Source: Chloroflexota bacterium
Lineage (GTDB): Bacteria > Chloroflexota > Anaerolineae > UBA1429
NCBI GenBank assembly: GCA_036774405.1
Contig: DAIPBO010000009.1
Span: 8,083 to 72,082, forward strand
Length of the DNA: 64,000 nucleotides
Reading direction: 5' to 3'
Shown here: positions 42,816 through 62,094 of the stretch, piece by piece
How the letters are laid out: each line of letters starts with the position of its first letter
Position numbering within the stretch: position 1 is the first letter of the stretch
Notes under the pieces: model-generated
The model's input: only the letters and a program-made list of their open reading frames with translations
Database searches by the model: none
What the model was told of the DNA's origin: nothing
Position numbers and translations under genes: made by a program

Positions 42816-42906
42816 GCACTAGTCTACCCAGGAGTGTCTGAGCTGCAAGCGACGACATTCGTTGTGTTGCTGCTTATCTATACACATGTATCGTCTTGTA
42901 TGGCCA

Positions 42907-42935
42907 TTGACACTCGAAAATCGTAGACCTATAAT
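42907..42935 (+). promoter_or_regulatory. Perfect consensus sigma-70 promoter (TTGACA-N17-TATAAT) upstream of the contractile injection system gene block.
   Basis: TTGACA at 42907-42912, 17-nt spacer, TATAAT at 42930-42935. Sits 53 nt upstream of the ATPase start. Confidence 0.6.
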
Positions 42936-42988
42936 CGAGGTAGGGTAAGGACGTCTTACTGAAGGGTCCCGTCAGGCGGTAAAGGGCC

Positions 42989-45100
42989 ATGAGCCAAGCT
43001 GGACTGCAGTGCGACTCTGGGCTCGAGCTGCTACCGCTGCTTGAGCGTGTTGGGCGCGAGTTGCGAGAGCGGTCTCGTGCACTTGCCGCGCAACTGACCG
43101 AGCCCAACCTGCGCGGGCTGGTCATCGCAGATGACGAGTTCGACCAACTGCTCGGCCAGTCACTGGGCGCATCTCCCTTTGCCTGTCTGCAACCCTTGGA
43201 TAATGCCCTCCACGGGGGAGCCTGGGAGCAACTGCTGGTACGGGTTGGGCTCTCGCATCTCGAAGGTCTGATCATCCTCATCGCGCTGTTGCCCGAGATA
43301 GATCGTGCTTTCGAGCGCATCTTTGGCTACCTGCAAGATGACGTCACTGCGCGGCGCCCGACGGTCGATCTCATGCTACGCCTGCTGTGGGATGCGCCCA
43401 GAGACCGCCTGGCCGCCCGAAGCCTCTTCTGGCCGCAGTCGCCTCTGCGACGGCTGGGCCTCGTGATGCTCCGCTCTGAGGGAGAGCGTGATTGCGGCCT
43501 GCTTGCCCAACAAGTCCTGGTACATCCTATTGCCACCGAGCATCTGCTGCGGCAGGGCGACGCCCCTGAGCCCGTGCAGCACGCCGTACGCGTGCTGGCG
43601 GTCGGCTCGCTGCTCGTGGACGCAGCCAGCCAGCAGGCACACGGCATGCTGGCTTGGCTGAATGATCAGTCGCCCACACGTCTCTGGGTGCAGGCACAGG
43701 CCCCCTACACCGAACTTGTGCGCAACCTGGCTCAGGCAGCTTGCGATAGCTGGCAACTCTCACTCGTCGAGCTGGACCTGTCGCAGACTGGCGATATCGA
43801 AGACGCCACGCGGGCGGCTGCGCTTGAGGCGCTGCTGCGAGACGCCGCTCTGTTCATCAGTGGTCTTGGCGACGAACAGGCTCCCTCTGAGCAACGTCTG
43901 ATGGTCGAGCGCGCCGCTGCCCTATTGTGCGCCTTTCCGCGTCCCGTGTTCTGGCACTGTTCGCTGCTAGTGCCCCTGGCTGCGCCCCCTCATACACGCA
44001 GTGCGACCTGTGAGTTGCCCGCCCCTGATTATGCCCAACGTTTGGCGCTATGGCAGGCCGCCATAGCCCCGGGCACATGCTGTGAGGCTGCTGCGCTCGA
44101 GAAAGTGGCGGGGCGCTACCGTCTGGCGCCAGAGCGTATCGCCTGGTCAGCCCGTGTGGCAGTAGAGACGGCGGCCAGGCTCGCGCCGCAGGCGGCGGTG
44201 CGATTTGCGGACCTGGCCGATGGTGCCCTGCGTGCAAGCAGTCGGGATATCGGGCAGCTAGCGCACCGCATCGCGCCACGGCATGGTTGGCAAGACCTGG
44301 TGCTCCCGGCCGATCGACTGGCGCAGCTCAGGGAGATGTGCGATCAGCTTGCCTACCGGCACGTCGTGATGGAGCAGTGGGGCTATGGTCGACGTAGTGC
44401 CGCGCCCGGCCTGTCGGCGCTGTTCGCTGGTCCATCGGGGACGGGCAAATCGATGGCCGCTGAAGTGATCGCAGGCGAGTTAGGGCTCGATCTCTATCGC
44501 ATCGACCTTTCTGGCGTCGTGAGCAAGTACATTGGAGAGACCGAAAAGAACCTGGCGCGCATCTTTTCGCTGGCGCGAGACGCTAACGCGATCCTGCTAT
44601 TCGATGAGGCCGACGCCCTCTTTGGCAAGCGCTCTGAGACGCGTGATGCCCACGACCGTTACGCCAATATTGAGGTCAGTTATCTGCTCCAGAAGATCGA
44701 AGAGTACGATGGTCTGGTGATCCTCACCAGCAATCTACGGCAGAACCTCGACGAGGCCTTTATGCGGCGGCTGCAGCTCTCGGTCGATTTCCCGTTTCCT
44801 GATGAGCAGACGCGCTTGCAGATATGGCGCAGGCTCATCACGCCGCAGACGCCCGTAGGGGAGCTCGACCTGGAGCATCTCGCCCGACGCTTTCGGCTGT
44901 CGGGTGGCAGCATTCGTAATGTGGTGCTCACGGCGGCATTCCTGGCGGCCCGTGATGGCCAGCCGCTCAACACCGACTATGTGACCTGGGCTGTCCGCCG
45001 CGAGTATCAAAAGCTCGGTCGTTTGGTTGAGGCTGGGCAGTTCGCGACCGGAGAGCGTTTGGGCGCTCGTATCGAGATGCAAGGGTGGGGTGATGCCTGA
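42989..45100 (+). CDS. eCIS-associated AAA+ ATPase (Afp15/Pvc15-like), with a large non-ATPase N-region and a C-terminal AAA+ domain.
   Basis: Walker A GPSGTGKSMAAE, Walker B ILLFDEADALF, sensor/arginine finger ...TSNLRQNLDEAFMRR. This is the first gene of the tail-like cluster. Confidence 0.75.
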   Translation: MSQAGLQCDSGLELLPLLERVGRELRERSRALAAQLTEPNLRGLVIADDEFDQLLGQSLGASPFACLQPLDNALHGGAWEQLLVRVGLSHLEGLIILIALLPEIDRAFERIFGYLQDDVTARRPTVDLMLRLLWDAPRDRLAARSLFWPQSPLRRLGLVMLRSEGERDCGLLAQQVLVHPIATEHLLRQGDAPEPVQHAVRVLAVGSLLVDAASQQAHGMLAWLNDQSPTRLWVQAQAPYTELVRNLAQAACDSWQLSLVELDLSQTGDIEDATRAAALEALLRDAALFISGLGDEQAPSEQRLMVERAAALLCAFPRPVFWHCSLLVPLAAPPHTRSATCELPAPDYAQRLALWQAAIAPGTCCEAAALEKVAGRYRLAPERIAWSARVAVETAARLAPQAAVRFADLADGALRASSRDIGQLAHRIAPRHGWQDLVLPADRLAQLREMCDQLAYRHVVMEQWGYGRRSAAPGLSALFAGPSGTGKSMAAEVIAGELGLDLYRIDLSGVVSKYIGETEKNLARIFSLARDANAILLFDEADALFGKRSETRDAHDRYANIEVSYLLQKIEEYDGLVILTSNLRQNLDEAFMRRLQLSVDFPFPDEQTRLQIWRRLITPQTPVGELDLEHLARRFRLSGGSIRNVVLTAAFLAARDGQPLNTDYVTWAVRREYQKLGRLVEAGQFATGERLGARIEMQGWGDA

Positions 45101-46925
45101 GAAACGCTTTGATCGCGTGAGAGTGACTCCTCGCACAGAGACAGCGCGAAGGGGCGAGTCGCCCCGGCCAGATTCGCTGCGCGCGGACTCTCAGCGGGCA
45201 GGGAATAGGTGTCTGCGCGCCCTGCTGGCGAGCGGAATGCCCAGCGGCATCCTGCGATCGGGGCGTGGCGGAGCTTTTTCCGCGTCGCACAACGTAGAGA
45301 TGGCCCTTGAGCGACGCCGCGGTCTTGGCCAGCCCCTGCCGGAACCAACTCGCACCAAGATGGAGATGGCTTTTGGGGCTTCGTTCGAGGGCGTTACCGT
45401 TCACACCGGCGGCGAGGCGGATGGCCTCGCGCAGCAGGTGGCCGCGGTGGCGTTCACCCATGGCAAAGATCTGTACTTTTCTGCTGGGGCTTTCGCACCC
45501 GACACGCCACACGGTCAGCGTCTGTTGGCTCACGAGTTGACTCATGTGATACAGCAGCGCCCTGGTCGCAAGGTCATGGTTGGCGCGGCCAATGACCCTG
45601 CCGAGTTGGAGGCCGATGCGTTGGCAGACGCCGTCGTGCAGCGTCTGACCTTTGATAGAGCCAGGGGGCAGAACGAGGTTCAGCCCATTCAGCGGCAAGT
45701 AGAACTTGAGGAAGAGGAGCCCATCCAGGCACTGCGGCGCCAGGTTGAGCCCGAGGAAGAAGAGCCCATTCAGACGCTGCGCCGCCAGAGCGAGGATGAC
45801 GAGTTGGCGCAGCCGCTGCGCCGTTCGTCACCGGTCGAGCCTGTGTCGAGCGCGCCTGCCGTCACATCGCAAGGGCCCACGACGGCCGGCGAGGCCTCAA
45901 CCTATGCCCGAGCTATGCAAGCCTATCGGGCCGGCGAGTTGCGCAGCGCTCAGGACCTCTTTCAGCAGGTGCGCGACGATCCTCAGGTGAGCGACCGTGA
46001 ACGAGCCAGCGCTACCTGGAACGTTGGTCGCATTCATGAGGAGCTGGGCGACGAGGCCGCCGCGCTGGCATGTTATCGCGAGTATCTATCCATGCCCGGG
46101 GCCTCTGCTGACCGTCGTCCGGTGGCCGAACGCATTGTGGAGCGAATGGAGAGCGAGCAGCGGGAGGGCGCAGAGCCGGCCGCTGGCATGGGATCGACGG
46201 CAACGGCCGCTGCAGAGCCCGAGGCCGCCACTGCCGAGACGTCGGCGCCTCACCGTCCTCGCCCCGAGGCCGCCCCCGACCCAGCCTCACGAGCCAGGGC
46301 CGTCTATCGCGAGGGCGTTCGCGCCTATCGCGCGGGCGAGTTGCGTGGCGCTCTGGACCGATTCCAGCAGGTGCTCGAGATCGATCAGGCGCCTGCGAGC
46401 CACCGCGCTAGTGCCATCTGGAACATAGGCCGCATCTATCAGGGGATGGGCAATAGCAGGGCCGCTCTGGCCATGTACCGCGCCTATATCGCTCAGCCCG
46501 CCGTGCCCCCCGAGCGTCTCGAGGTGGCGCAGGGCATCATCGCAGACCTGGAGCGTGAAAGCAAAGCCGGCACTGCGGAACCTGAGGCTGGAGTAGGGGC
46601 TGGCCCCGACGACAAGGCGACGGCGCCCGAACGTCTGCCCACCGTTCCCGAGCAGCGAGCTCAGGCGCTCTATGGCCTGGCATCGCAGGCCTATCAGAAC
46701 GGCGACTATGCCACAGCACTCGAGCACCTGCAACAGCTCATGCGTACCGATGGGCTCGAGCAGCGGTTGTATACCGAGACGCTCTACAACATGGCGCAAT
46801 GTTATCGACGGCTTGGCAACAATGGCGCCGCCATAGACATGTATCGTGGTTTTATGGAGCAGCCCGATGCCGCACCCGAAGAGCGCGAGCGCGCACAGCA
46901 ACTGATCGCGACGCTGCGCCGCTAG
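45093..46925 (+). CDS. DUF4157 (HExxH metallopeptidase-like, eCIS-associated) domain protein with an acidic tandem repeat and three roughly 95-aa TPR-like repeats. Candidate effector/cargo or adaptor.
   Basis: AFGASFEGVTVHTGGEADGLAQQVAAVAFTHGKDLYFSAGAF...LLAHELTHVIQQR matches the DUF4157 core. Start ATG overlaps the ATPase stop (ATGCCTGA). Confidence 0.6.
   Translation: MPEKRFDRVRVTPRTETARRGESPRPDSLRADSQRAGNRCLRALLASGMPSGILRSGRGGAFSASHNVEMALERRRGLGQPLPEPTRTKMEMAFGASFEGVTVHTGGEADGLAQQVAAVAFTHGKDLYFSAGAFAPDTPHGQRLLAHELTHVIQQRPGRKVMVGAANDPAELEADALADAVVQRLTFDRARGQNEVQPIQRQVELEEEEPIQALRRQVEPEEEEPIQTLRRQSEDDELAQPLRRSSPVEPVSSAPAVTSQGPTTAGEASTYARAMQAYRAGELRSAQDLFQQVRDDPQVSDRERASATWNVGRIHEELGDEAAALACYREYLSMPGASADRRPVAERIVERMESEQREGAEPAAGMGSTATAAAEPEAATAETSAPHRPRPEAAPDPASRARAVYREGVRAYRAGELRGALDRFQQVLEIDQAPASHRASAIWNIGRIYQGMGNSRAALAMYRAYIAQPAVPPERLEVAQGIIADLERESKAGTAEPEAGVGAGPDDKATAPERLPTVPEQRAQALYGLASQAYQNGDYATALEHLQQLMRTDGLEQRLYTETLYNMAQCYRRLGNNGAAIDMYRGFMEQPDAAPEERERAQQLIATLRR
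45681..45824 (+). repeat. Imperfect 45-nt tandem repeat encoding (V)E(P)EEEEPIQxLRRQ acidic repeats inside the DUF4157 gene.
   Basis: ...QPIQRQ / VELEEEEPIQALRRQ / VEPEEEEPIQTLRRQ / SEDDELAQPLRR. Confidence 0.5.
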
Positions 46926-46931
46926 GGAGCC

Positions 46932-47777
46932 GTGATGATTCACTTGCTTGATGATGCCATCCGTAAACTGATCCAGACTGAGACGGGCTATGCCGCGCCC
47001 GATGTTGAGGTCAGCTTCAGCCAGCCTACGGGCGATTGGGCAGCTGGCCTGACGCATCCGGTGATCAACTGTTATCTATATGATGTTCGTGAGAATAACG
47101 AACTGCGCTCGGCCGAGTGGACCGTCGACCGCGGCCCCAACGGGTATGCGGCCAAGCGAATGGCTCCGCTGCGCTTTGACGTCAGCTATCTCATCACAGT
47201 GTGGACGCAAGACCATATCGACGACGAGCATGCCATGCTCTGGCGCGTGCTCGAGTCCTTGGCGACGCACGAGACGCTCCCAGACCAGTACTGTGATGAG
47301 GCCCTGAAAAGCCAGCCCTATCCACTGCGCTGCAAGACGGCGCAGGCGACGCGTGCCATCGATGATCTACCCGATTTGTGGAGTGTGATGGACAACCCTT
47401 TGCGTCCATCGATCAACTATGTGGTCACCATGGCAATGGAGCGCATGGAGCCGATCCACAGTCGTCAGGTGGTTACCAAACAGATCGACGTGGTGCAACG
47501 TGGGGTGATCGAAACTCAGGCCGAGACGATCCTGCAGATCGGAGGCATCGTCCACAACGGTGGGCGAACGCCTGCCCCAGTTGCGGGCGCCAGCGTCACT
47601 CTGGTCGAAACGGCCCAGCAGACCTTGACTGATCGGCTGGGGCGCTATCGCTTTCGCAACGTGCCGCGCGGTCGCTATCGGCTGGTGGCAGCCCACGAGG
47701 GCATGCATGGTGAGCGCGAGATCATCGTACCTCTACGTTCGGGCGATACCGACCTGTATGACATCGGTGTGCACTGA
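46932..47777 (+). CDS. eCIS cap/tail-terminator protein (Afp16/Pvc16-like, DUF4255) with a C-terminal carboxypeptidase-regulatory-like beta-sandwich.
   Basis: N-terminus MIHLLDDAIRKLIQTETGY...PVINCYLYDVRENNELRS is the typical DUF4255 start. C-terminal GASVTLVE...GRYRFRNVPRGRYRLVA. Confidence 0.65.
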   Translation: MMIHLLDDAIRKLIQTETGYAAPDVEVSFSQPTGDWAAGLTHPVINCYLYDVRENNELRSAEWTVDRGPNGYAAKRMAPLRFDVSYLITVWTQDHIDDEHAMLWRVLESLATHETLPDQYCDEALKSQPYPLRCKTAQATRAIDDLPDLWSVMDNPLRPSINYVVTMAMERMEPIHSRQVVTKQIDVVQRGVIETQAETILQIGGIVHNGGRTPAPVAGASVTLVETAQQTLTDRLGRYRFRNVPRGRYRLVAAHEGMHGEREIIVPLRSGDTDLYDIGVH

Positions 47778-47855
47778 TGCCGAAAGGAGGCACAGCTTTA
47801 TTCTGACATTGTGGCAGGCACCCTGGCTCTGAGGTTGTGAAAAGGACGAGCGAAC

Positions 47856-49418
47856 ATGCCAATCTATCAGTCTCCGGGCGTTTACATCGAAGAGGTCGAC
47901 CGTGGCACACGGCCCATTGAGGCGGTGGGCACCGCAGTTGCGGCCTTTGTCGGCTTTAGCGCCAAGGCCGAGATGCCAGGCGGCGTCAATGAACCGGTGT
48001 CGCTTTTGGGCAAAGCTGTTGCGGTGACCAACTGGTCGCAGTATGTAGAGAGGTATGGCGGCTTTCTCGATGGGGCATACCTGCCCTATGCCGTGTACGG
48101 CTACTTTTTGAACGGTGGCAGTCGCTGCTATGTCGTCAGCGTCAAGACATTGGGAGCTTCGACAGATCCGAGCCTGGCCAGCCCCGCCATGGTGGCGCTG
48201 CCAAGCGGCGGTGAAAAGCCGGCCGATACCCTACAGATCACGTCACGCTCGGGTGGCCCCGCCGGCAATGATATTCAGGTGGCAGTGCGTCCGCTCGAGG
48301 AGGATCGCTTTACGCTGGTCATCAGCGGGCCCGATGGCGCCAGCGAGACCTTCGAGGGCCTGACTCTCGCCAAAGACGAGCGTAACGTCGAGGTGGTGGT
48401 CAACGCCCAGTCTCGACTGGTCAAAGTGGCGGTGCTTAAGGCGGCTGGCAGTTTGGTCGAGCGCAAGCCCCAAGAGGGCACCTACACGCTGACCGGCGGC
48501 GCTATGCAGACCAAGGCCGTTACTGCGGCCGACTATCGCGGGCAGGTGGCGGAGCGCACGGGGATCGGCGGCCTCGAGGCGGTGGAAGAGATCACCATGC
48601 TGGCTGCACCAGATCTCATGGCCAGCTATCAGGCCGGTGAGATGTCGTTGGGCGACGTGCAGGCGGTGCAGCAGGCAATGTACGAGCACTGCGAACGTGT
48701 CAAGTACGCTTTTGCCATCCTCGATTGCCCACCCGATCTGGGGCCTCAGGCCATGCGCGATTGGCGCCTCACAGCCAACTACGACACCAAGTACGCCGCG
48801 CTCTACTATCCCTGGATCGAGACGGGCGACATGGTACGTGGCAAGGGCGTTGTGCGCGTTCCGCCTTCGGGCCACATCGCTGGCGTCTATGCGCGTAGCG
48901 ACGCCGAGCGGGGCGTACACAAGGCTCCAGCCAACGAGGTGGTGCGCGGTGCTACGGGGCTGCCCATCCAGATCACTCGCGCCGAACAGGATAGCCTCAA
49001 CCCGATCGGCATCAACTGCATCCGATCCTTCCCAGGGCGTGGCCTGCGCGTTTGGGGCGCTCGCACCCTCAGCAGTGATCCTGCCTGGCGCTACATCAAC
49101 GTGCGCCGGCTGTTCAACATGGTTGAAGAGTCGATCGAGCGGGGGACACAGTGGGTCGTGTTTGAGCCGAACGACGCCGACCTGTGGGCACGGGTGCGCC
49201 GCGATGTGCGCGCCTTTCTCAAGACCGTGTGGTCGTCGGGGGCGCTGTTCGGGGCTTCGCCCGACGAAGCCTTTTACGTCAAGTGTGATGAGGAACTCAA
49301 CCCACCCGAAGTGCGCGATCTGGGCCAGCTGATCATCGAGATCGGCATTGCGCCAGTCAAGCCGGCTGAGTTTGTCATCTTCCGTATCAGCCAGTGGGCC
49401 GGGCCATCGGCCGAGTAG
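47856..49418 (+). CDS. Contractile tail sheath protein (Afp2/3/4, phage sheath family).
   Basis: MPIYQSPGVYIEEVDRGTRPIEAVGTAVAAFVG N-terminus. Conserved C-terminal sheath domain (AALYYPW...GHIAGVYARSD...APANE). Size 520 aa. Confidence 0.85.
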   Translation: MPIYQSPGVYIEEVDRGTRPIEAVGTAVAAFVGFSAKAEMPGGVNEPVSLLGKAVAVTNWSQYVERYGGFLDGAYLPYAVYGYFLNGGSRCYVVSVKTLGASTDPSLASPAMVALPSGGEKPADTLQITSRSGGPAGNDIQVAVRPLEEDRFTLVISGPDGASETFEGLTLAKDERNVEVVVNAQSRLVKVAVLKAAGSLVERKPQEGTYTLTGGAMQTKAVTAADYRGQVAERTGIGGLEAVEEITMLAAPDLMASYQAGEMSLGDVQAVQQAMYEHCERVKYAFAILDCPPDLGPQAMRDWRLTANYDTKYAALYYPWIETGDMVRGKGVVRVPPSGHIAGVYARSDAERGVHKAPANEVVRGATGLPIQITRAEQDSLNPIGINCIRSFPGRGLRVWGARTLSSDPAWRYINVRRLFNMVEESIERGTQWVVFEPNDADLWARVRRDVRAFLKTVWSSGALFGASPDEAFYVKCDEELNPPEVRDLGQLIIEIGIAPVKPAEFVIFRISQWAGPSAE

Positions 49419-49461
49419 CTGACTCGTGGCGCATGAGCGCGGCGATTGAGGAGGAACACAG

Positions 49462-49905
49462 ATGGGTGAGCGTCAGGACCCATTGGTTGGTTTTCACTAT
49501 GCCATTGACGTGCAAGGCAAGATCCGCGGTTACTTTACCGAGTGTAGCGGCATCGGCTCAGAGCACGAAGTCATCGAACACAAAGTCGTCGACGAAAAGG
49601 GCCGCGAGGTCATCATGAAGCTCCCTGGACGCCTCAAGTGGGAGAACATCACTCTCAAGCGGGGCATCACCAACAATATGGACATCTGGGATTGGCGCGA
49701 CGAGGTTGTCCGCGGCAAGGTGGATGATGCGCGACGCAACGGCTCGATTATCATGTTCGATCAATCGCTCAAAGAGGTCGCGCGCTGGAACTTTGAGCGA
49801 GCGTGGCCGGTCAAGGTTAGCGGACCGGCGGTCAAGGCTGACAGCAACGAGTTTGCGATCGAGGAACTGGTGATCACGCACGAGTATCTGTATCGCGCGC
49901 CTTAA
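49462..49905 (+). CDS. Inner tube protein (Afp1/Pvc1-like, T4 gp19 fold).
   Basis: PLVGFHYAIDVQG...GYFTECSGIGSE...KWENITLKRGIT pattern of eCIS/T6SS Hcp-like tube proteins. Size 147 aa. Confidence 0.8.
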   Translation: MGERQDPLVGFHYAIDVQGKIRGYFTECSGIGSEHEVIEHKVVDEKGREVIMKLPGRLKWENITLKRGITNNMDIWDWRDEVVRGKVDDARRNGSIIMFDQSLKEVARWNFERAWPVKVSGPAVKADSNEFAIEELVITHEYLYRAP

Positions 49906-49921
49906 GGCTGGCGGCTGAACC

Positions 49922-50281
49922 ATGCAGACCGAATTCACGTTCCGCCTGCCCTTGGGCTATCAGGACGGCGCTGGCCAGGTGCACCGAGAGGGCTCGATGC
50001 GCCTGGCGACGGCCATAGATGAGATCGCGCCGCTTGGCGACGCGCGCGTGCGCGCAAACGAAGCCTATCTCTCCGTGCTGTTGCTCGCGCGGGTGGTCAC
50101 ACGGCTGGGATCTCTTCCGACGGTGACCACCGAGGTCATCGAGGGGTTGTTCTCGGCCGACGTGGCCTTTTTGCAGGCGCTCTATCGGCAGATCAACCTG
50201 ACCGGCGGTTCCGTGGTCGAGGCCGTTTGCCCGCACTGCGGCCAGACGTTTGAGGCGCTGCTCGCCTCGTCCGAACCATGA
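49922..50281 (+). CDS. Small conserved hypothetical protein between the two tube genes (possible assembly chaperone). C-terminal CxxC.
   Basis: 119-aa ORF with an ATG 16 nt after the tube stop. No recognisable family. VCPHCGQTFEAL at the C-terminus. Confidence 0.4.
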   Translation: MQTEFTFRLPLGYQDGAGQVHREGSMRLATAIDEIAPLGDARVRANEAYLSVLLLARVVTRLGSLPTVTTEVIEGLFSADVAFLQALYRQINLTGGSVVEAVCPHCGQTFEALLASSEP

Positions 50282-50322
50282 TCAGGTGACATGAGATCAT
50301 GTGCTGTGAGTAGGATGGGCTG

Positions 50323-50751
50323 ATGGAAGTCGAGGCGTATCCGGCCTTTCGGTTTGCCGTGCAGATCGAGGGCGTCACTGAGGCCATGTTCACCGAATGC
50401 ACCTTGCCGTCCCTCGAGGTAGACGTGCGCGAGCAACTCGAGGGCGGCTATAACGATGGCACGCATCTCTTGCCAGGGCGGGTCAAGCGCGGCACCGTGG
50501 CTCTCAAGCGTGGCGTGGCCCGGCAGAGCGCGCTGCTGCGCTGGTACAACGAAGTGATGCAGGGGCAGATCGCCAAGAGCCGTCGGCAGGTATCGGTGCT
50601 CTTGCTCGACTCGCTTGGCGAGACGGTGCTGCGATGGGATTTCGTCGGAGCCTATCCAACCAAGTGGTCGGGTCCTACACTCAACAGTGGCAGCAAAGAG
50701 CTGGCCGTCGAGACGCTCGAACTGGGCTTTGAGAATGTGACGGTGGGGTGA
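50323..50751 (+). CDS. Second tube paralog (Afp5/Pvc5-like).
   Basis: FRFAVQIEG...FTECTLPSLEVDV...GRVKRGTVALKRGV. Size 142 aa. Confidence 0.8.
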   Translation: MEVEAYPAFRFAVQIEGVTEAMFTECTLPSLEVDVREQLEGGYNDGTHLLPGRVKRGTVALKRGVARQSALLRWYNEVMQGQIAKSRRQVSVLLLDSLGETVLRWDFVGAYPTKWSGPTLNSGSKELAVETLELGFENVTVG

Positions 50752-52793: not shown

Positions 52794-52806
52794 GAGGGAT
52801 GCAGAG

Positions 52807-53466: not shown

Positions 53467-53470
53467 GACG

Positions 53471-55174: not shown

Positions 55175-55177
55175 GAG

Positions 55178-55585
55178 TTGATGATGGCGGCGGTGCCGGC
55201 GGCCAAGCAGGGCGATTTGGTGCAGGCGATGGACACCCACATCGTGATGGTGCCCACGCCCGGTGGATCTGTACCCACGCCCATGCCCGGGCACCCTTTC
55301 GCGGGCACCATCGATGGTGGGTTGAGCAGTAATGTCACCATCATGGGGCGACCCGCTGCCACCATGAACAGTACTGCTACCAACCAGCCCCCACATATAC
55401 CCATCGGCGGGCCATCTTTTCAGGTGCCGCCCAGTAATCGTGCCACCATTGTGCAAGGAAGCGCCACAGTCTTGATCAACGGACTGCCAGCGGCGCGTAA
55501 CGGTGATATGGCGCTCACTTGCGATGACGCCGCACCAGCTCCGCACGGTCAGGTGATTGCCACAGGTACCGTCTTGATTGGCTGA
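55178..55585 (+). CDS. PAAR-domain spike tip protein (Afp10-like).
   Basis: Three PAAR-like beta-strand repeats. Ends GDMALTCDDAAPAPHGQVIATGTVLIG. Size 135 aa. Confidence 0.65.
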   Translation: MMMAAVPAAKQGDLVQAMDTHIVMVPTPGGSVPTPMPGHPFAGTIDGGLSSNVTIMGRPAATMNSTATNQPPHIPIGGPSFQVPPSNRATIVQGSATVLINGLPAARNGDMALTCDDAAPAPHGQVIATGTVLIG

Positions 55586-55599
55586 AAGGCAGGAGACCA

Positions 55600-55995
55600 T
55601 TGGCGGGCGATATCATTGGACGTGGTTGGACATTTCCGCCTCGACTCGATGAGCGTGGTCAGGTCGCCATGGTCGGTGGCGAGGTCGAGATCGAACAGGC
55701 AGTAAGGATCATTCTAGGCACCTCACCGGGCCAGCGGGTCATGCGACCCGAGTTCGGCTGTCGGCTTCAAGAACTCGTTTTTGCGCCCAACAACAGCCGC
55801 ACCGCTGGCCTCGCCGAGCGCTATGTACGCGAGGCGCTAGGGCGCTGGGAGCCGCGCATTCGAGTGACCGCGGTGAGCGTGAGCACTGACAATCAGCATG
55901 AGGGGCAGTTGTCTATCGGCGTCGAGTATCTCATCAAGGCAACTCACTCGAGCCGTTCCTTGGTCTACCCATTCTACCTGATTCCAGAGGAGTAA
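55600..55995 (+). CDS. Baseplate wedge protein gp25/GPW-like (Afp9).
   Basis: GDIIGRGWTFP...EQAVRIILGTSPGQRVMRPEFGCRLQELVF is the conserved GPW_gp25 motif. Size 131 aa. Confidence 0.8.
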   Translation: MAGDIIGRGWTFPPRLDERGQVAMVGGEVEIEQAVRIILGTSPGQRVMRPEFGCRLQELVFAPNNSRTAGLAERYVREALGRWEPRIRVTAVSVSTDNQHEGQLSIGVEYLIKATHSSRSLVYPFYLIPEE

Positions 55996-56001
55996 AGCAG
56001 C

Positions 56002-57987
56002 ATGCCGCTGCCCAGCCAGCCCCTAGATGATCGCTCGTTTCAGGACCTGGTTGACGAGGCCAAGAAGCGCATCCCGCTCTATTGCCCCGAGTGGACTGAT
56101 CACAATGTGAGTGACCCCGGGGTGACACTGATTGAGCTGTTTGCCTGGATGATGGACATGCTCCTATTTCGCCTCAATCAGGTGCCACGCAAGCACTATG
56201 TCAAGCTGCTCGAGTTGCTTGGCATCCAGCTTCAGCCACCAAGGGCCGCTATGGCACCGTTGGTATTCTATCTATCGACGCCACAGGCACAACCGGTGCA
56301 GGTGGCTCGTGGCACCGCGGCGAGCACGAAGCGTTCAGGCGGTGAGGAGGCGATCGTCTTTACCACCGAGAAGGACCTTACGATCCAGCCGGCCCAGCTA
56401 GAGCATCTAGTGGCACGCCGACGTCTCGGCGATCAGGGCATGGTATTCCAGGATATCGGCCTGCAAAGGCTCGAGCGCGACTTTCGTCCGTTCTCTGCCA
56501 CCGATCCGCATCAGGGCGAGGCACTCTACTTTGGTTTGGGCGGCGAGTTGCATCGACACGTGCTCGGGCTCGAGCTCGACTGTGTGCGCGCAGGTGGGCT
56601 GAACATCATCCCAGAAAACCCACCTCTGGTGTGGCAGGCTTGGAGCGAGGGGGGCTGGAGCGATGTTGATGTGGAGCAGGATACCACCGGCGGCCTAAGC
56701 TGGACTGGGCAGGTGCGGATTCATCTGCCCCAGATGGCCCGCAGCGACGTCAACGGTGTTGAGGCGTACTGGGTGCGCTGCCAGGTGATCGCCGCAGAGC
56801 AGGGGCGGCGTGCCTATGCGACCTCGCCGATCATCCGCAATGTGCGGGCTCTGACCTGGGGTGCCACTGTCGATGCCATGCATGCCACCGAGGTACAGGC
56901 CGAGCCGTTGGGGCGCAGTGATGGGTCGCCCGGGCAGGTGTTCAGTCTCGAACACGCGCCAGTTCTGCCGCGCATGAAAGAGGAGTGCGTCGTGATCTGG
57001 CAACCCGGGCTCGACAGCGGGGAGGAATGGCACGAGGTGGAGAGTTTCGCCGAGACCTCGGCCGAGGATCGGTGCTACACACTCGACAGCGCCACCGGTG
57101 AAGTAACCTTTGGCCCTGCCATCCGCCAGCGCGATGGGTCGGTGCGTAGCTACGGGGCCATACCCCCGCGCGGCGCCGAGCTGCGCATGACGCGCTATCG
57201 CTATGGCGGTGGCACTCGTGGCAATGTCCGTGCAGGGGCGGTCACCGAGCTGCGCACTGCCATACCCTACGTCGCACGCGTGACGAATCGCCTGCCGGCC
57301 AGCGGCGGGTGGGACCCCGAGGATCTAGAGGCAGCGATGTTCCGTGCCCGCCATGAGTTGCGGACACGCTATCGGGCGGTAGCTCCTGACGATTTCGAGT
57401 TCTTGGTGCTGCAGGGCTTTCAGGGCCGCATCGCCCGTGCGCGCTGTCTGCAGGCAGCCCAGATGGGGCGTGGCGCACCCTCGCCAGGGCAGGTCTATGT
57501 GGTGGTCGTTCCCCAGCTGTCACCTGACGAGGCTCGGCGCTACATCCCCCCCTCGCGGCTCGCCCTGACGCCCGAGTTGCAGCAAGAGGTCACAGCTTTC
57601 CTGGATGAGCGCCGTCTCTTGACGACGCAGCTGGCCGTGCGTGAGGCGGGCTACAAGCGCATTGCTGTACAGGTGGCGGTCGTAGCCAGGCCAGGCACCG
57701 ACGCCCACCGGTTAAGGACTGATGTGCACCAAGCGCTCGACCTTTTCCTGAATCCTCTCGTGGGGGGATTGGATGGCACCGGCTGGCCCTTTGGGCGTGA
57801 GGTCTATCTGTCTGACCTGTACACGTGTATTCAGCAGGTCGACGGGTTGCTCAACGTACAGACACTGCAGATGGCCTGGCTTGATGAGACCGACCAGCCG
57901 CACCTGGGCGAGCGCAAAATCGACTTGTTGGCGCATGAGGTGGCGATCTCAGACATCCACGTCGTCACTGTTGAGGCGGGAGAGTGA
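56002..57987 (+). CDS. Baseplate J-like protein (Afp11, T4 gp6-like).
   Basis: 661 aa. N-terminal FQDLVDEAKKRIPLYCPEWTDHNVSDPGVTLIELFAWM is typical of baseplate J. Confidence 0.8.
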   Translation: MPLPSQPLDDRSFQDLVDEAKKRIPLYCPEWTDHNVSDPGVTLIELFAWMMDMLLFRLNQVPRKHYVKLLELLGIQLQPPRAAMAPLVFYLSTPQAQPVQVARGTAASTKRSGGEEAIVFTTEKDLTIQPAQLEHLVARRRLGDQGMVFQDIGLQRLERDFRPFSATDPHQGEALYFGLGGELHRHVLGLELDCVRAGGLNIIPENPPLVWQAWSEGGWSDVDVEQDTTGGLSWTGQVRIHLPQMARSDVNGVEAYWVRCQVIAAEQGRRAYATSPIIRNVRALTWGATVDAMHATEVQAEPLGRSDGSPGQVFSLEHAPVLPRMKEECVVIWQPGLDSGEEWHEVESFAETSAEDRCYTLDSATGEVTFGPAIRQRDGSVRSYGAIPPRGAELRMTRYRYGGGTRGNVRAGAVTELRTAIPYVARVTNRLPASGGWDPEDLEAAMFRARHELRTRYRAVAPDDFEFLVLQGFQGRIARARCLQAAQMGRGAPSPGQVYVVVVPQLSPDEARRYIPPSRLALTPELQQEVTAFLDERRLLTTQLAVREAGYKRIAVQVAVVARPGTDAHRLRTDVHQALDLFLNPLVGGLDGTGWPFGREVYLSDLYTCIQQVDGLLNVQTLQMAWLDETDQPHLGERKIDLLAHEVAISDIHVVTVEAGE

Positions 57988-57990
57988 GCG

Positions 57991-58941
57991 ATGGCTGATG
58001 CCCTGGGCGCACGATTGATCATCCGTATGCCCGATGGCCCCGACGTAGTTTTTGCACTTGCTCAGCCGGTGGTGCGCATCGGCCGTAACCCTGCGCCACA
58101 GAACGACCTGGTGCTACCACATAGCGCTGTGTCGCGCTATCACGCTCGCATCTACTGCGATCGCTTGCCCTATCGCGTGCAAGATGTGGGCAGCAGCAAC
58201 GGCACCGCCCTGAACGACGCGCCGGTGGCCCCTAATGAGATGTGGCCCCTGACTGACGGCGATATCATTGGCATCGGGCCCTTTCGGCTGACCTATGTGG
58301 CACCCCGCGAGTCGGATCAGGCTTTGGCCATCGAGCCTCCTGTGGCGAGGGCTGAGGCAGAGATCGCCGCAGGTGGGCAGGCAATGCCCGGCACACCAGG
58401 TGGCGCAGAGCCGCCCATCCCCCCCTCTCAAGGGCAGCGTGTATTGTCAGAGCCGCCGCCATGGTTAGGCATGCCCACCGACGCCAGTCGGTGGTTGCAG
58501 CACCTGCCGCCACTCTACGCCGAGGAAGGATTCCTGGGGCGGTATCTCCTGCTGTTCGAAGATTTGCTGGGGCCAGCCGAACAGGCGATTGCGCATTTCG
58601 ACCTGTTCCTTGACCCCGAGACCTGCCCCGATGATATGGTGCCGTTGTTGGCGCAGTGGCTTGGCGTTGAGGTTGCCGAGCGCTGGCCACTGGCCGTCAA
58701 GCGGCAGCTCGTAAAGCATGGCGCCTGGCTGCATCGAGCCCGTGGTACGCTGCCTGGCCTAAAGCGTCACCTCGAGATCTGCACGGGCGGTGCGGCCGAG
58801 ATCAGCGAGAACGACGAGCGCCCTCACACCATCGTCGTTCGCATCGCTGCCCCTCAAGAGACGATCGATCGGCCGCTGCTCTCTGAGGTGATCCGCTATC
58901 ACTGCCCTGCTCACGTGGGCTTTGCCTTACGGATAGACTGA
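57991..58941 (+). CDS. FHA domain fused to a P2 gpI-like baseplate protein (Afp12-like).
   Basis: N-terminal FHA (VVRIGRNPAPQNDLVLPHSAVSRYHARIY...VQDVGSSNGTALND). C-terminal LDPETCPDDMVPLLAQWLGVEV...KRQLVKHGAWLHRARGT matches the tail protein I family. Confidence 0.7.
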   Translation: MADALGARLIIRMPDGPDVVFALAQPVVRIGRNPAPQNDLVLPHSAVSRYHARIYCDRLPYRVQDVGSSNGTALNDAPVAPNEMWPLTDGDIIGIGPFRLTYVAPRESDQALAIEPPVARAEAEIAAGGQAMPGTPGGAEPPIPPSQGQRVLSEPPPWLGMPTDASRWLQHLPPLYAEEGFLGRYLLLFEDLLGPAEQAIAHFDLFLDPETCPDDMVPLLAQWLGVEVAERWPLAVKRQLVKHGAWLHRARGTLPGLKRHLEICTGGAAEISENDERPHTIVVRIAAPQETIDRPLLSEVIRYHCPAHVGFALRID

Positions 58942-58951
58942 CGACGGCCCT

Positions 58952-61900
58952 GTGCCGAGAAAGGCGACTGACATGGAGAGACTCGTTGGCACGGTGCTCA
59001 ATAGCTCCTATCGCGTTGACAAGCTGCTTGGCCAGGGGGGCATGGGCGCCGTCTTTCGCGCTCGAGACGTCGCACTGGACAGAGACGTGGCCATCAAGCT
59101 GATGCATAGCCACATCTCGACGCAGCAAGGCTTTCGCGAGCGCTTTTTGCAGGAAGCACGGGCCATCGCCGCTCTGTCGCATCCTGGCATCGTGCCGATC
59201 CACGCCTTCAGTAGTGATCCCCAGCAGCTCTATATCGTGATGGCGTTCATCGAGGGGCAGAACCTAGCCGACTGGCTTCATCTGCTCAATCAGCGCCAGC
59301 AGACGGCCTCGCTTTCCGAAACGCTGGGCATCGCCGAGATGGTGGCCGACGCTTTGGCCTATGCGCATCGTCGGGGCGTGTATCATCGCGACATCAAGCC
59401 CGGCAATATAATCCTTAGACCGCTGGAGGCGGGACAGGTCAACGAGGCGGGGCTGACCTTTCACCCCATCGTGACCGACTTTGGCCTGGCCAAACTGGCT
59501 GAGGGCGGCGTGCAGTCGATGGCAGGGCTCTCGATGGGCACGCCGGCCTACATGGCGCCCGAGCAGTGTGAAGCCAGGCCCATCGACGGTCGCGCTGACC
59601 TCTACTCGCTGGGCATCGTGCTCTACGAGTTGGTCGCAGGGCGCGTGCCCTTTGCAGTCAGCACCCTCACCGAGGCGCTGAAGGCTCACACACAACAGAC
59701 GCCGCCTCCACCACGTACACTGGCGCCCGATCTGCCCACGTCTGTCGAGAGGGTCATCCTCAAGGCACTGGCCAAGCGGCCCGAGGAGCGCTTTCAGAAT
59801 GGCGCCGAGATGGCCGAAGCGCTGCGCCTGGCGCGGCAGGGTCTGTCGGCTGACCAGGGGGCCTCCACAGCAGCGCCCACGCAGGCGGGCTATGCCAGCC
59901 TGGCAACGTTGATGTCACAGCAGACGCCACCGCCAGCGCCCAAAGAGGCGGCCTGGCCTACGCCGCCCTCTGATCTCGAAGCTGGTGCTCAGGTTATGGT
60001 GATGGCCCCCGATGGCACGAGTAGCGCGGTGGCCTTTGGGACGCGAAGCGCCCTCACCATCGGCCGTGACCCCGGCAACAGCATCGCGCTGGACGATCCG
60101 CAAGTCTCGCGCCAGCACTGCCAGGTGAGCACCGACAACGGGCGGTTTTTTGTGACCGACCTCAATTCGACCAACGGTACCTTTCTGGGCGACAACAAGC
60201 TGCTGCCGGGCGTGGCCGAGCCCTGGCGGCCAGGGCAGCCTGTACGCGTAGGGGGGCATTGGCTGCGTCTGCGGTTGGCCGAGGGCGGCTCACGACCGGT
60301 GGCTCAAGAGGCATTGTCTGCCGCTGTGGGCCCACGCCTGACCGCAAGGCCTGTCACCCTGACGCTCGAGCCTGAGCGCGTGATTGTAGAGCCTGGCAAG
60401 GCCGTGAACATGACGCTTCATGTGCTCAATCAGCAGCAGCAGGTCGATCATTTTGTCGCGGTGGTAGAGCAGCTGCCACAGCAGTGGGTTACAGCCCCTG
60501 CCCAGCCATTGCGCCTTGCCCCCGGCGATGCCGGCATCTTGGCTCTGCGCCTAGCGCCGCCTCGTGACGCGACCAGCGTGAGTGGCGAGCATGTCTTTGA
60601 TGTTCGCGTGGTATCACGGGCCGACCCGAGCATCAGCGCTCAGGCCACCGGCACTTGCCAGATCACGCCGTTTCGCGCCATGAGCCTCGACCTGCAGCCC
60701 AGCACCTTTGTCAACGCGGGCACGGCGTTCCTCGGTGTAGCGAACCAAGGCAATAGCCTGGAGACCATAGAGTTGGCCGTGGTCGACCCAGCAGGGGTGT
60801 TGGCCACACCCCCTTCGAGCCAGCGCCTTGTGTTGCAGGCAGGGCAGCGCCAGCAGGTAGAACTGCCTCTTGTCGCCAAGCGGAGGCGCCCCTTGATCGG
60901 CAATCCGAGTACCAGCGCTTTTCAGGTGCAGGCGCGCGCCCAGGAGCAACAGCTCGCCGCGGTACAGGGCTCGTTCACGGTGAGACCGATCGTGCCCACG
61001 TGGGCCATCCCCATTCTCACGACGCTGGTGTTGCTGCTCTGCGCGGGGGTGGCGCTCGCCTACAACAACGCCCAAAAGGGCAGGACAGCCGAACGCACCG
61101 CCATCGCGATGGGCATCAACCAGGCGACGGTAACCGCTGAAGCGGTCATGGCCATCAATGCGACGCAAACGGCAGAAGCATTGGCCGCAGTGGCGACGTC
61201 ACAGGCTCAGGCAGAGGCTACTGCCAACATGCAGACGGCCACCGTTGTAGCGGCCAAGAGCACCGCAGACTGGCTCGCTGCCGATACCGATGGAGATGGG
61301 CTGACCAATGCACAAGAGCAGGCCTATGGCACAGACCCTCATAACATCGACACCGATGGGGATACCCTACCAGACGGCCACGAAGTGGCGACCGGAACGA
61401 GCCCCGTCAATCGAGACACCGATGGCGATGGCCAGCAGGACAACGTTGACCCCAGCCCCGGCGAGCTGCCCACCGCCACACCCTCGCCCACCTCTACGGC
61501 CACGCCGACGCTGACGCCGAGCCCGTCGCCAACGCCAGAGCACGTTTTTGCAGCCGACCAGATCCGCTCGTTTGCAGTGGTAGCCACCGATGTTGGCACT
61601 GTGACGGGGGTCTGCATCAGGCACGATAATGCGGGGCCAGAACCCGATTGGTTCGTATCAGAGGTGCGCGTCGACGGTGGGGCAGGGTTTGTCTCGTTTA
61701 CGTTCAATCGTTGGTTGGCCACTGACAAGGCCGATGGGATGATCGAGGCGTGTCGTGGCACCGCAACCAGTCTTCTCATCGAAGGGCGTCTACCGCCGGC
61801 ACGACCGGACTTGATTGAGGATAGCGCGTTCCATCTGCTTGCTCTGACGCCCACGCCCACGATCGATTTCGGCGTCATCCGCGAGTTCTACCAGGTGCAG

Positions 61901-62050
61901 CCCAGGCCCTTCTTGCCCATGCTGCCTCTCGGCAAGGCCTACACCATCGAGATTACGACGGGCAACGCCAACGGTGCGGGCACCAGCGCCAAGGTGTCGG
62001 CCAAGATAGCGGGAAGTAGCGGGCAGACCGACTGGATCGCTGTAGAGTAG
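58952..62050 (+). CDS. Transmembrane Ser/Thr protein kinase. Architecture is kinase - FHA - tandem beta-sandwich repeats - TM - thrombospondin type-3 repeats - PLAT/LH2 domain.
   Basis: Hanks motifs GQGGMGAVF, AIK, HRDIKPGNIIL, DFG and APE. Internal FHA (ALTIGRDPGNSIALDDPQVSRQHCQV...NSTNGTF). TM WAIPILTTLVLLLCAGVALAY. TSP3 DTDGDGLTNAQE / DTDGDTLPDGHE / DTDGDGQQDNVD. C-terminal PLAT-like beta-sandwich. Confidence 0.8.
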   Translation: MPRKATDMERLVGTVLNSSYRVDKLLGQGGMGAVFRARDVALDRDVAIKLMHSHISTQQGFRERFLQEARAIAALSHPGIVPIHAFSSDPQQLYIVMAFIEGQNLADWLHLLNQRQQTASLSETLGIAEMVADALAYAHRRGVYHRDIKPGNIILRPLEAGQVNEAGLTFHPIVTDFGLAKLAEGGVQSMAGLSMGTPAYMAPEQCEARPIDGRADLYSLGIVLYELVAGRVPFAVSTLTEALKAHTQQTPPPPRTLAPDLPTSVERVILKALAKRPEERFQNGAEMAEALRLARQGLSADQGASTAAPTQAGYASLATLMSQQTPPPAPKEAAWPTPPSDLEAGAQVMVMAPDGTSSAVAFGTRSALTIGRDPGNSIALDDPQVSRQHCQVSTDNGRFFVTDLNSTNGTFLGDNKLLPGVAEPWRPGQPVRVGGHWLRLRLAEGGSRPVAQEALSAAVGPRLTARPVTLTLEPERVIVEPGKAVNMTLHVLNQQQQVDHFVAVVEQLPQQWVTAPAQPLRLAPGDAGILALRLAPPRDATSVSGEHVFDVRVVSRADPSISAQATGTCQITPFRAMSLDLQPSTFVNAGTAFLGVANQGNSLETIELAVVDPAGVLATPPSSQRLVLQAGQRQQVELPLVAKRRRPLIGNPSTSAFQVQARAQEQQLAAVQGSFTVRPIVPTWAIPILTTLVLLLCAGVALAYNNAQKGRTAERTAIAMGINQATVTAEAVMAINATQTAEALAAVATSQAQAEATANMQTATVVAAKSTADWLAADTDGDGLTNAQEQAYGTDPHNIDTDGDTLPDGHEVATGTSPVNRDTDGDGQQDNVDPSPGELPTATPSPTSTATPTLTPSPSPTPEHVFAADQIRSFAVVATDVGTVTGVCIRHDNAGPEPDWFVSEVRVDGGAGFVSFTFNRWLATDKADGMIEACRGTATSLLIEGRLPPARPDLIEDSAFHLLALTPTPTIDFGVIREFYQVQPRPFLPMLPLGKAYTIEITTGNANGAGTSAKVSAKIAGSSGQTDWIAVE
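61280..61455 (+). repeat. Three tandem thrombospondin type-3 (DxDxDG) calcium-binding repeat units inside the kinase gene.
   Basis: Repeated gacaccgatggnga-type units encoding DTDGDG. Confidence 0.5.
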
Positions 62051-62053
62051 GAG

Positions 62054-62088: not shown

Positions 62089-62094
62089 GCCAGT

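Follow-up and report, generated by a model that had tools for sequence, protein, structure and literature searches.

An FHA-bearing baseplate protein and a membrane kinase in a contractile injection system locus of an Anaerolineae bacterium, with a possible role in firing control

The locus and its FHA and kinase genes

A stretch of 64,000 nucleotides (nt) from a Chloroflexota bacterium (Anaerolineae, UBA1429; GenBank assembly GCA_036774405.1, contig DAIPBO010000009.1, positions 8,083 to 72,082 of the forward strand), here called the window, contains a locus for a contractile injection system (CIS), a phage-tail-like machine, in which one baseplate protein carries an FHA domain and the last gene encodes a membrane-spanning Ser/Thr kinase. 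Fifteen genes follow one after another on the + strand within 42907 to 62050 and make up a complete core CIS set, according to Pfam, NCBIfam, and PHROGs matches above curated cutoffs. Pfam and NCBIfam place 13 of the 15 open reading frames (ORFs); the remaining two, of 119 and 681 amino acids (aa), have no Pfam match. A first-pass annotation of this DNA had read the stretch as 15 co-directional genes for all core parts of an injection machine and had listed the families to be expected; profile searches of the ORFs bore out that reading and recovered every one of those families. An independent Logan assembly holds an identical locus and was used for downstream extension and for checking gene starts.

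The penultimate gene (57991 to 58941, + strand) encodes a 316-aa fusion of an FHA domain (PF00498, E 3.7e-18) to the baseplate wedge protein Cis12 (Tail_P2_I, PF09684, E 8.8e-16; TIGR01634, 35.5 bits, cutoff 30.05). The FHA domain occupies aa 4 to 105 (nt 58000 to 58305) and is followed by a disordered linker (aa ~106 to 165) and the Cis12 wedge domain (aa ~166 to 316). An AlphaFold2 (AF2) model built with 33 homologs gave predicted local distance difference test (pLDDT) values of ~96, ~45, and ~93 for FHA, linker, and Cis12, respectively; as modeled, FHA is a separate domain on a disordered tether of ~55 residues. The best Foldseek match of this model was a baseplate chain (9gtp_A) of the Streptomyces coelicolor CIS (CIS-Sc), followed by the FHA domains of GarA and OdhI (TM-scores of 0.8 to 0.9), and a PDB sequence search with the Cis12 domain matched 9gtp_E (E 7e-11). 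Streptomyces Cis12 has 190 aa and no FHA domain. Because CIS-Sc has six wedges, each made of two Cis11 subunits and one Cis12, the baseplate encoded in the window would carry six tethered FHA domains.

Across 33 sequences, the Cis12 FHA domain always has G31, H51, S68, and G71, and conservation is 90% or more at R32, R49, N70, and T72. The positions corresponding to the phosphothreonine-binding residues of characterized FHA domains are conserved (G31, R32, S48, R49, H51, N70, G71, and T72), and the domain is predicted to be competent for phosphothreonine binding. In both sequence and fold it is most like GarA and OdhI of mycobacterial and corynebacterial PknB-FHA signaling. Those systems control metabolism and cell-wall synthesis, whereas the reader in the window belongs to a phage-tail baseplate.

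The last gene of the operon starts 32 nt past the Cis12 stop codon and encodes a bitopic sensor kinase/adaptor of 1025 aa (58973 to 62050, + strand; PF00069, E 3.8e-44; PF00498, E 1.2e-17; PF18884; PF01477). Its ORF opens at 58952, which is codon 1 in the residue numbers given here, and the start at ATG 58973 is backed by an independent 1025-aa gene call. On the cytoplasmic side lie a Hanks-type kinase domain (aa 20 to 282), a linker (aa 285 to 365), an FHA domain (aa 369 to 432), and two Ig-like domains (aa 466 to 683). A single hydrophobic transmembrane (TM) helix follows (aa 684 to 704; nt 61001 to 61063), and the part beyond it consists of TSP3 calcium-binding repeats (aa 778 to 831), a Pro/Thr linker (aa 839 to 862), and PLAT-like domains (aa 868 to 1032). 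The N terminus should be inside and the C terminus outside, since the kinase and FHA domains need the cytoplasm.

The whole window contains one kinase domain and two FHA domains, all inside the CIS cluster. The PF00069 and PF00498 matches and the TM helix thus uphold the first-pass claim of two FHA domains and a Hanks-type transmembrane kinase. That annotation had placed the kinase beside the CIS genes, which is correct as to position; the gene is not merely adjacent, however, but is the last of the operon. It was also right that no tail fiber (Afp13-like) gene is present: the kinase gene occupies the slot that tail fibers take after Tail_P2_I in conventional extracellular CIS (eCIS) loci and that cisA (SCO4242) takes in Streptomyces.

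The kinase resembles PknB-type kinases, and its motifs are intact at the expected spacing (GQGGMGAV, VAIK, HRDIKPGN, DFGLAK, and APE), from which activity is predicted. Its FHA domain resembles FhaB/FipA and retains the motifs TIGRD, VSRQH, and STNGT with conserved phosphothreonine-binding residues. The linker between the two domains (~80 residues) contains threonines in the motifs SLATL at 316 and WPTPP at 335. In an alignment of 17 orthologs the linker is otherwise variable, and the threonine of SLAT[LM] is found in all of them and that of WPTPP in 15. These two threonines are candidate autophosphorylation or docking sites. The docking of FHA proteins on autophosphorylated kinase linkers is an established paradigm.

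The Ig-like (NEW3/FixG_C-like) assignment comes from weak NPCBM_assoc and FixG_C Pfam matches and from a beta-sandwich in a single-sequence AF2 model, which was confident for the first beta-sandwich only and gave generic tandem-Ig matches in Foldseek. A profile of the Ig-Ig-TM region searched against a set of 5.8 billion proteins found distant NEW3/CARDB-like Ig proteins and missed the known orthologs, and so supports an Ig-like fold and nothing narrower. The outside region is exchanged among orthologs (loci of relatives carry L numbers below). The window protein (61283 to 62047) and L001 share TSP3 plus PLAT-like domains, and the C terminus in L002 (~13100 to 14028) is unrelated; over the 790 cytoplasmic residues the window and L002 proteins are 44% identical. 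Such swapping suggests that the sensed signal has diversified.

The remaining genes, all on the + strand, lie upstream of this pair. A sigma-70-type promoter (TTGACA, 17 nt, TATAAT; 42907 to 42935, + strand) agrees with the consensus at 12 of 12 positions, is the sole 12/12 site of that kind within 42600 to 62400, and lies 54 nt ahead of the first gene; the locus is probably one operon driven from it. The first gene (42989 to 45100) encodes a 703-aa Cis15/Afp15-like AAA+ ATPase with an N-terminal winged-helix domain (PF00004, E 1e-25; PF22977, E 2.5e-23) and, unlike ClpV, one AAA module. It is followed by a DUF4157/eCIS_core protein with C-terminal TPR repeats (45093 to 46925, start refined to the ATG at 45093; PF13699, E 2e-29, plus TPR families), by analogy a putative Sle2-like effector-core or loading factor. 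The cap or tail terminator Cis16 (46932 to 47777; Pvc16_N, DUF4255, PF14065, E 1.6e-31) includes a CarboxypepD_reg domain and matched the Streptomyces CIS cap chain 9gts_0A in a PDB sequence search (E 1.7e-23). The 520-aa contractile sheath protein Cis2 (47856 to 49418; PF04984 and PF17482) matched the CIS-Sc sheath 8bky_A over its full length (E 4e-161). The inner tube protein Cis1a of the gp19 family (49462 to 49905; PF06841, E 2.5e-37) and a second tube-family protein, a Cis1b-like tube initiator layer (50323 to 50751; PF06841, E 2.7e-37), stand on either side of the 119-aa ORF.

That ORF (49922 to 50281) encodes a tail-assembly-chaperone-like protein (PHROG 508, "tail assembly chaperone," E 6e-8) without a match in Pfam or PDB searches. 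Its position is kept in relatives, and its C-terminal end is CxxC zinc-ribbon-like (CPHCG motif). In relatives, a DUF6760 ORF of 54 to 57 aa directly follows the chaperone-like gene (L001, 2207 to 2371; L004, 1730 to 1903), an arrangement reminiscent of the G/GT chaperone pair 5' of phage tape-measure genes; a search of the window for this small ORF found none. The other ORF without a Pfam match occupies the tape-measure slot (50748 to 52793), a position conserved in relatives, and encodes a disordered Pro/Ala/Ser-rich protein of ~650 to 681 aa, the start being uncertain (681 aa here, 651 aa by an independent gene call). It had no match in Pfam, NCBIfam, or PHROGs and may serve as a length ruler or as cargo of the lumen; the Streptomyces cargo Sle1 is tape-measure related. 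Nearly all of the protein is low-complexity Pro/Ala/Ser/Glu sequence; short (V/L)QR motifs occur at several places, and the helix at the C terminus is basic and conserved. In L005, L033, and L060 the corresponding gene encodes 1200 to 1550 aa, and in Roseiflexus sp. RS-1 it is RoseRS_1661 (975 aa, with a DUF4157 domain).

The tube end and baseplate genes complete the set. Cis7/Afp7, a 219-aa LysM tube initiator (52807 to 53466; CIS_tube, PF19266, E 1.7e-25, plus LysM), has an AGGAGG ribosome-binding site ahead of its ATG at 52807 and matched 9gtp_P (E 1.5e-21). The VgrG-like spike Cis8 is a single contiguous gene (567 aa; 53471 to 55174; Phage_GPD, PF05954, and Phage_base_V, PF04717), followed by the PAAR spike tip Cis10 (55178 to 55585; PF05488, E 1.7e-17), the gp25-like sheath initiator Cis9 (55600 to 55995; PF04965, E 6e-27), and a single copy of the Baseplate_J wedge protein Cis11 (56002 to 57987; TIGR02243, E 1e-138), which matched CIS-Sc chain 9gtp_1K over residues 1 to 624 (E 2.5e-146).

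Kind of injection system and genomic surroundings

The nearest solved structures for the sheath, Cis11, Cis12, Cis7, and cap are, by a wide margin, subunits of CIS-Sc or of the S. venezuelae CIS, and PDB matches to Afp, PVC, AlgoCIS, and tCIS subunits are far weaker. This homology strengthens a likeness to the cytoplasmic CIS of Streptomyces that the first-pass annotation had remarked on; CIS-Sc (Casu et al. 2025, PMC12237407) is likewise fiberless. Chen et al. 2019 characterized subtype IId by a single afp11, a contiguous afp8, the presence of afp10, and the absence of canonical afp12, afp13, and afp14. The window correspondingly has one Baseplate_J gene, a contiguous VgrG gene, a PAAR gene, Tail_P2_I in place of Afp12, and no fiber gene.

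A locus of Roseiflexus sp. RS-1, from the same phylum, shows gene-by-gene colinearity with the window (RoseRS_1650 to RoseRS_1670). It is tabulated in Supplementary Data 3 of Geller et al. 2021, including the FHA+Tail_P2_I gene and, after it, two Pkinase+FHA genes. Using cryo-electron tomography, Gaisin et al. 2026 (PMC12998442) found Roseiflexus CIS particles to be intracellular and unanchored, and they placed the Chloroflexota/Deinococcota lineage in subtype IId; they noted that firing may differ from that in Streptomyces and that close cisA homologs are absent in Roseiflexus. The gene order is nearly identical to that in the window, with the differences that Roseiflexus has two kinase paralogs and a methyltransferase gene inserted before them. 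The inserted gene, RoseRS_1668 (Methyltransf_31/MethyTransf_Reg), lies between FHA-Cis12 and the two kinase-FHA genes and has no counterpart in the window. The order with ATPase and cap genes first does differ from that of Afp/PVC loci, as the first-pass annotation had pointed out; it is no peculiarity of this genome, however, but the normal IId order, as in Roseiflexus RS-1.

Afp/PVC systems of lineage I share the sheath, gp19 tube, LysM, VgrG, PAAR, gp25, Baseplate_J, DUF4255, AAA ATPase, and DUF4157 proteins with the window. They differ in having an Afp13 fiber and Afp12, whereas the window has a Tail_P2_I adaptor, another gene order, and predicted intracellular action; the locus contains no Afp13-like fiber, no Afp12, and no 3' ATPase and cap genes, which stand at its 5' end. 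The label eCIS given to the locus at first is probably wrong, because an FHA domain on the baseplate makes sense solely inside the producing cell, and the system probably groups with the cytoplasmic CIS of subtype IId.

Membership among type VI secretion systems (T6SS) was rejected on gene content, the sheath being PF04984, the tube PF06841, and the ATPase of the single-AAA Afp15 type. TssB/C, Hcp, ClpV, and TssJLM are absent among the genes of the locus, where the sole T6SS-related match is a subthreshold TssF inside Baseplate_J. The T6SS threonine phosphorylation pathway comprises the kinase PpkA, the scaffold Fha, and the phosphatase PppA. It shares with the loci described here a Hanks kinase in the membrane whose sensor lies outside, FHA readers, and, in a sister clade, a PP2C-like phosphatase, all beside a contractile machine that this kinase/FHA set presumably gates post-translationally. 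It differs in that FHA is a separate scaffold there, whereas here it is fused to a baseplate wedge and the kinase has its own FHA domain and Ig-TM module.

We scanned 43 kb upstream of the cluster, 2 kb downstream in the window, and, in the independent assembly, 7 kb more on the downstream side. The flanks encode ordinary metabolism and transport (PFOR, UPRTase, GT4, and MobB upstream; LarC/LarB-like proteins, NAD synthase, an ECF transporter, and coenzyme A biosynthesis among the genes downstream). Genes for capsid, portal, terminase, integrase, or lysis proteins and for tRNAs are lacking from the 64-kb window and from the extended assembly, and no fiber-like gene occurs in the window or in 10 kb of additional downstream sequence. 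The first-pass remark that no prophage context was visible therefore holds over the longer stretch as well. GC content is even, the cluster matching its flanks, and in a relative with ~50% protein identity, Ni_insertion and AIRC genes likewise come directly after the cluster. Because the flanks are ordinary, GC is uniform, and the downstream genes are shared at ~50% identity, we regard the cluster as a long-resident chromosomal system and not a prophage.

The ORFs on either side of the cluster (42229 to 42858, - strand, 209 aa; 63267 to 63980, - strand, 237 aa) have no significant Pfam match, and the gene at the position of the 237-aa ORF in the independent assembly has a weak NAD_synthase match. 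Elsewhere in the window are two features apparently unrelated to the CIS: a cluster of a MoxR-type AAA_3 ATPase, DUF58, and DUF4129 genes (9412 to 13017, - strand) and a 711-aa VIT and VWA protein (29413 to 31548, + strand).

The FHA-Cis12 and kinase pair in relatives

Clustered at 90% identity, proteins with FHA plus Tail_P2_I architecture gave 104, and later at least 380, groups. When 1.84 billion representatives were searched with a profile, 1231 proteins reached E<=1e-30; of the 150 best, most matched over the full length (300 to 350 aa). The named sources are nearly all Chloroflexota metagenome-assembled genomes (MAGs), and the closest species representative in GTDB is the Anaerolineae MAG AnMBR.bin314 (73% identity for Cis12). 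A few FHA-Cis12 sequences (L029, L031, L045, and protein P0112) come from short contigs that had been assigned to Oceanobacillus, Rhodothermaceae, Bacteroidetes, and Burkholderiales; these are probably mis-binned Chloroflexota contigs. Spread past Chloroflexota is possible, given that a table of Geller et al. 2021 lists FHA in eCIS operons of four phyla.

For synteny, we gathered 80 loci from Chloroflexota-dominated contigs, one genome per species, anchored on FHA-Cis12 alone and scored with the domains found in the window. Cis12 carries FHA in at least 76 of the 80. Sixty loci were informative, having FHA-Cis12 followed by 3.5 kb or more of sequence, and 47 of them (78%) contain a kinase-domain ORF, in all but a few cases on the same strand and 0 to 2 kb away. 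The synteny check proposed with the first-pass annotation, which was to look for FHA-gpI fusions beside Ser/Thr kinases in relatives, thus gave a phylum-wide association, and it is kept down to ~30% identity. Chance adjacency of the kinase was rejected on the basis of these 47 syntenic species-representative loci and the occurrence of one kinase in 64 kb.

The domain order of the usual partner is kinase-FHA(1-6)-Ig-Ig-TM-outside domain. In another six of the 60 loci the partner is an FHA-Ig-Ig-TM protein without a kinase domain, and among 53 partner kinases, HRD and DFG are both retained in 41. Ig-Ig-TM is the conserved core of the partner and stays where the kinase domain has been lost. Three loci in which Cis12 lacks FHA (L080 to L082, from Dehalococcoidia, SAR202, and the unclassified MAG UCB2) encode Ig-Ig-TM proteins and no kinase, so Ig-Ig-TM appears to be the ancestral partner in the membrane, perhaps in its minimal form, to which kinase and FHA were added. 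The Ig-Ig-TM proteins of L081 and L082 are short (244 to 291 aa).

Several loci depart from the usual arrangement. Pseudokinases or kinase paralogs occur in L005 (6459 to 9881), L006 (8821 to 11319), L027 (9298 to 12849), and L079 (10861 to 20984). L079 has four kinase-FHA paralogs in tandem, and in L005 the kinase gene sits between Cis11 and FHA-Cis12, not downstream. A 609-aa protein without a Pfam match follows FHA-Cis12 in L004 (11014 to 12843; MAG GCA_964449465.1), near the contig end and with no kinase; it may be either an effector or a substitute partner.

The most elaborate cassettes come from the Aggregatilineales/Candidatus Flexifilum clade, where the order is FHA-Cis12, DUF4157, a kinase of ~2100 aa with 4 to 6 FHA domains, and a TM-FHA protein of ~700 aa. 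Giant kinases of about 1700 to 2600 aa are encoded, downstream of the match at ~10000, in loci of this type (L033, L039, L042-L044, L048, L052-L054, L056, L059, L060, L064-L066, L072, L075, L076, and L085). Where the contig continues, a PP2C-like phosphatase gene comes next in at least 11 sister-clade loci (for example, L060, 19131 to 20468). Of a T6SS-type set of kinase, FHA, and PP2C, the window itself holds the kinase and two FHA domains. By analogy, the sister-clade cassette would represent the full kinase/reader/phosphatase logic of PpkA/Fha/PppA in T6SS.

Control of firing and alternative explanations

In Streptomyces, CisA is a bitopic membrane protein (N-in/C-out) that is needed for contraction and for stress-induced death and is missing from purified particles; a sensor and checkpoint role has been suggested for it (PMC12237407). 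CisA and the window kinase are alike in position and topology, both being bitopic N-in/C-out proteins encoded directly 3' of the baseplate genes. The cytoplasmic region of CisA is unstructured, its outer domain is solute-binding-like, and, unlike the window kinase, CisA has no kinase, FHA, or Ig domains; the link between membrane and baseplate encoded in the window differs from that of CIS-Sc in being predicted to depend on phosphothreonine. We think it reasonably probable that the system is a Streptomyces-like cytoplasmic CIS of subtype IId under the control of this kinase. It is likewise probable, on balance, that the kinase protein is the counterpart of CisA as membrane sensor and adaptor, and that the six FHA domains of the baseplate recognize its phosphothreonines and thereby gate docking and firing. 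The sharper version, in which a sensor kinase stands in place of the fiber or CisA and firing is set by a direct phosphothreonine "handshake" from the kinase to the six baseplate FHA domains, we put forward more tentatively, as a possibility that falls somewhat short of probable.

The proposed sequence of events would begin with assembly of the particle (cap, sheath, tube, spike, and gp25/Cis11/Cis12 wedges) in the cytoplasm. An envelope or extracellular cue would be perceived by the variable outside sensor (here TSP3 plus PLAT) and would switch on the kinase, which would phosphorylate its own threonines (SLAT[LM] and WPTPP being candidates), CIS proteins, or both. The baseplate FHA domains would bind these phosphothreonines multivalently, so that a free-floating, "safe" particle would become docked baseplate first on the cytoplasmic membrane and contraction would be licensed. 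By analogy with CIS-Sc, the result may be regulated death or lysis of the producing cell within its filament. We infer that the machine works inside its producer because an FHA domain would be useless outside, the relatives are intracellular, and there are no fibers. Our confidence is greatest for intracellular action, lower for the kinase as membrane partner, lower again for docking and firing through phosphothreonine and FHA, and lowest for cell killing.

Several observations weigh against this proposal. Seven of the 60 informative loci have neither a kinase nor an FHA partner within 10 kb, and the two of these that we inspected have unrelated housekeeping genes downstream. Some partners are pseudokinases (HGN for HRD, DVG for DFG) or lack the kinase domain, so some lineages appear to do without catalysis, and docking of the particle by the Ig-TM module could proceed unphosphorylated. 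Such variants favor a structural role for the partner in which catalysis is not always needed, and docking through the Ig domains, with phosphorylation merely modulating it, is an alternative. A search of the window for a PP2C phosphatase found none. The unanchored state of particles in unstressed Roseiflexus fits an off state, and it is equally expected without any docking. Cytoplasmic location and death of the producer are extrapolated from relatives, and the link from FHA to phosphosite is a candidate, as are the conserved threonines themselves.

Phosphothreonine read by the Cis12 and kinase FHA domains might instead permit assembly of the baseplate or particle, or cargo loading, with firing controlled otherwise. 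T6SS offers a precedent, since threonine phosphorylation through PpkA/Fha governs positioning and assembly initiation there. The sister-clade kinases with 4 to 6 FHA domains and the extra TM-FHA proteins look scaffold-like, and engagement of FHA on a wedge subunit such as Cis12 could gate wedge incorporation. However, Roseiflexus, with the same FHA-Cis12 and kinase set, has fully assembled, free-floating, extended particles in intact cells; because these are complete yet free-floating, assembly seems independent of a membrane site. In Streptomyces, moreover, the slot-equivalent CisA is needed for contraction and not for assembly. We consider such an assembly checkpoint unlikely. A T6SS-like outward weapon, in which the kinase-FHA-Ig-TM protein anchors the baseplate and the machine fires through the envelope into neighbors with PAAR/VgrG- or DUF4157-linked cargo, is distinctly unlikely. 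The partner does have the topology of a membrane protein, PAAR, VgrG, and DUF4157/TPR genes are in the locus, the kinase/FHA/PP2C cassette is as in T6SS, variable extracellular domains could mean sensing of neighbors, and Gaisin et al. (PMC12998442) leave cyanobacteria as possible targets of the Roseiflexus CIS. But the locus encodes no TssJLM-like complex, ClpV-type recycling ATPase, TssB/C, or Hcp and no immunity-like or recognizable toxin gene, the nearest characterized relatives act on the producer, and Roseiflexus particles are not membrane anchored.

Earlier surveys class the locus with eCIS and treat FHA there as a "regulatory shell" domain, and adjacent genes often regulate eCIS operons. 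One might accordingly suppose a conventional extracellular particle freed by lysis, with the kinase and FHA genes as mere neighbors or expression regulators. This we find highly improbable: an FHA domain fused to a structural wedge cannot act via transcription and has no ligand outside the cell, the kinase gene fills the fiber slot of a locus that has no fiber or receptor-binding gene, and kinase synteny down to ~30% identity and intracellular relatives also speak against it. Since all of the structural genes are phage-tail homologs, a defective prophage tail or tailocin remnant was considered as well. It is effectively refuted by the housekeeping flanks, the lack of head, packaging, integration, lysis, and tRNA genes, the presence of the eCIS-specific DUF4157, DUF4255, and Afp15-like ATPase, and the shared downstream genes and flank-like GC content. 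A phospho-gated cytoplasmic CIS is the reading that we prefer to all of these.

In Supplementary Data 10 of Geller et al. 2021, FHA is among the domains enriched in eCIS operons ("Regulatory/Shell"; 35 occurrences in four phyla, odds ratio 5.6). As far as we have seen, this raw association was tabulated and never interpreted, and the Cis12 fusion, the occupation of the CisA slot, and the phylum-wide cassette have apparently gone undiscussed. FHA and Ser/Thr kinases are absent from the main texts of Chen 2019, Geller 2021, the tail fiber catalogue, the metagenome survey, and Gaisin 2026, and Vladimirov 2023 does not mention the kinase. Full-text searches combining CIS with FHA or kinase returned T6SS papers only; few subscription journals were covered, so an earlier mention is possible. 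From what we have seen, the regulatory logic of the locus was previously known from T6SS alone.

In Streptomyces, the requirement for CisA is all that is known of the trigger of the cytoplasmic CIS. The locus described here and its several hundred relatives offer a concrete, genetically encoded candidate answer to the question of how firing is controlled. If the proposal is correct, the system would be the first CIS apart from T6SS to be phospho-gated, and gating by threonine phosphorylation would reach the other major branch of CIS. It would also supply the missing trigger of the intracellular CIS of Roseiflexus, possibly as a switch for programmed cell death or abortive infection in filamentous bacteria. 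The bacteria concerned are filamentous, abundant in sludge, sediments, and mats, and for the most part uncultured; they include Candidatus Flexifilum and Aggregatilineales, which bear the elaborated versions of the cassette, and the system would provide a handle on their regulated death.

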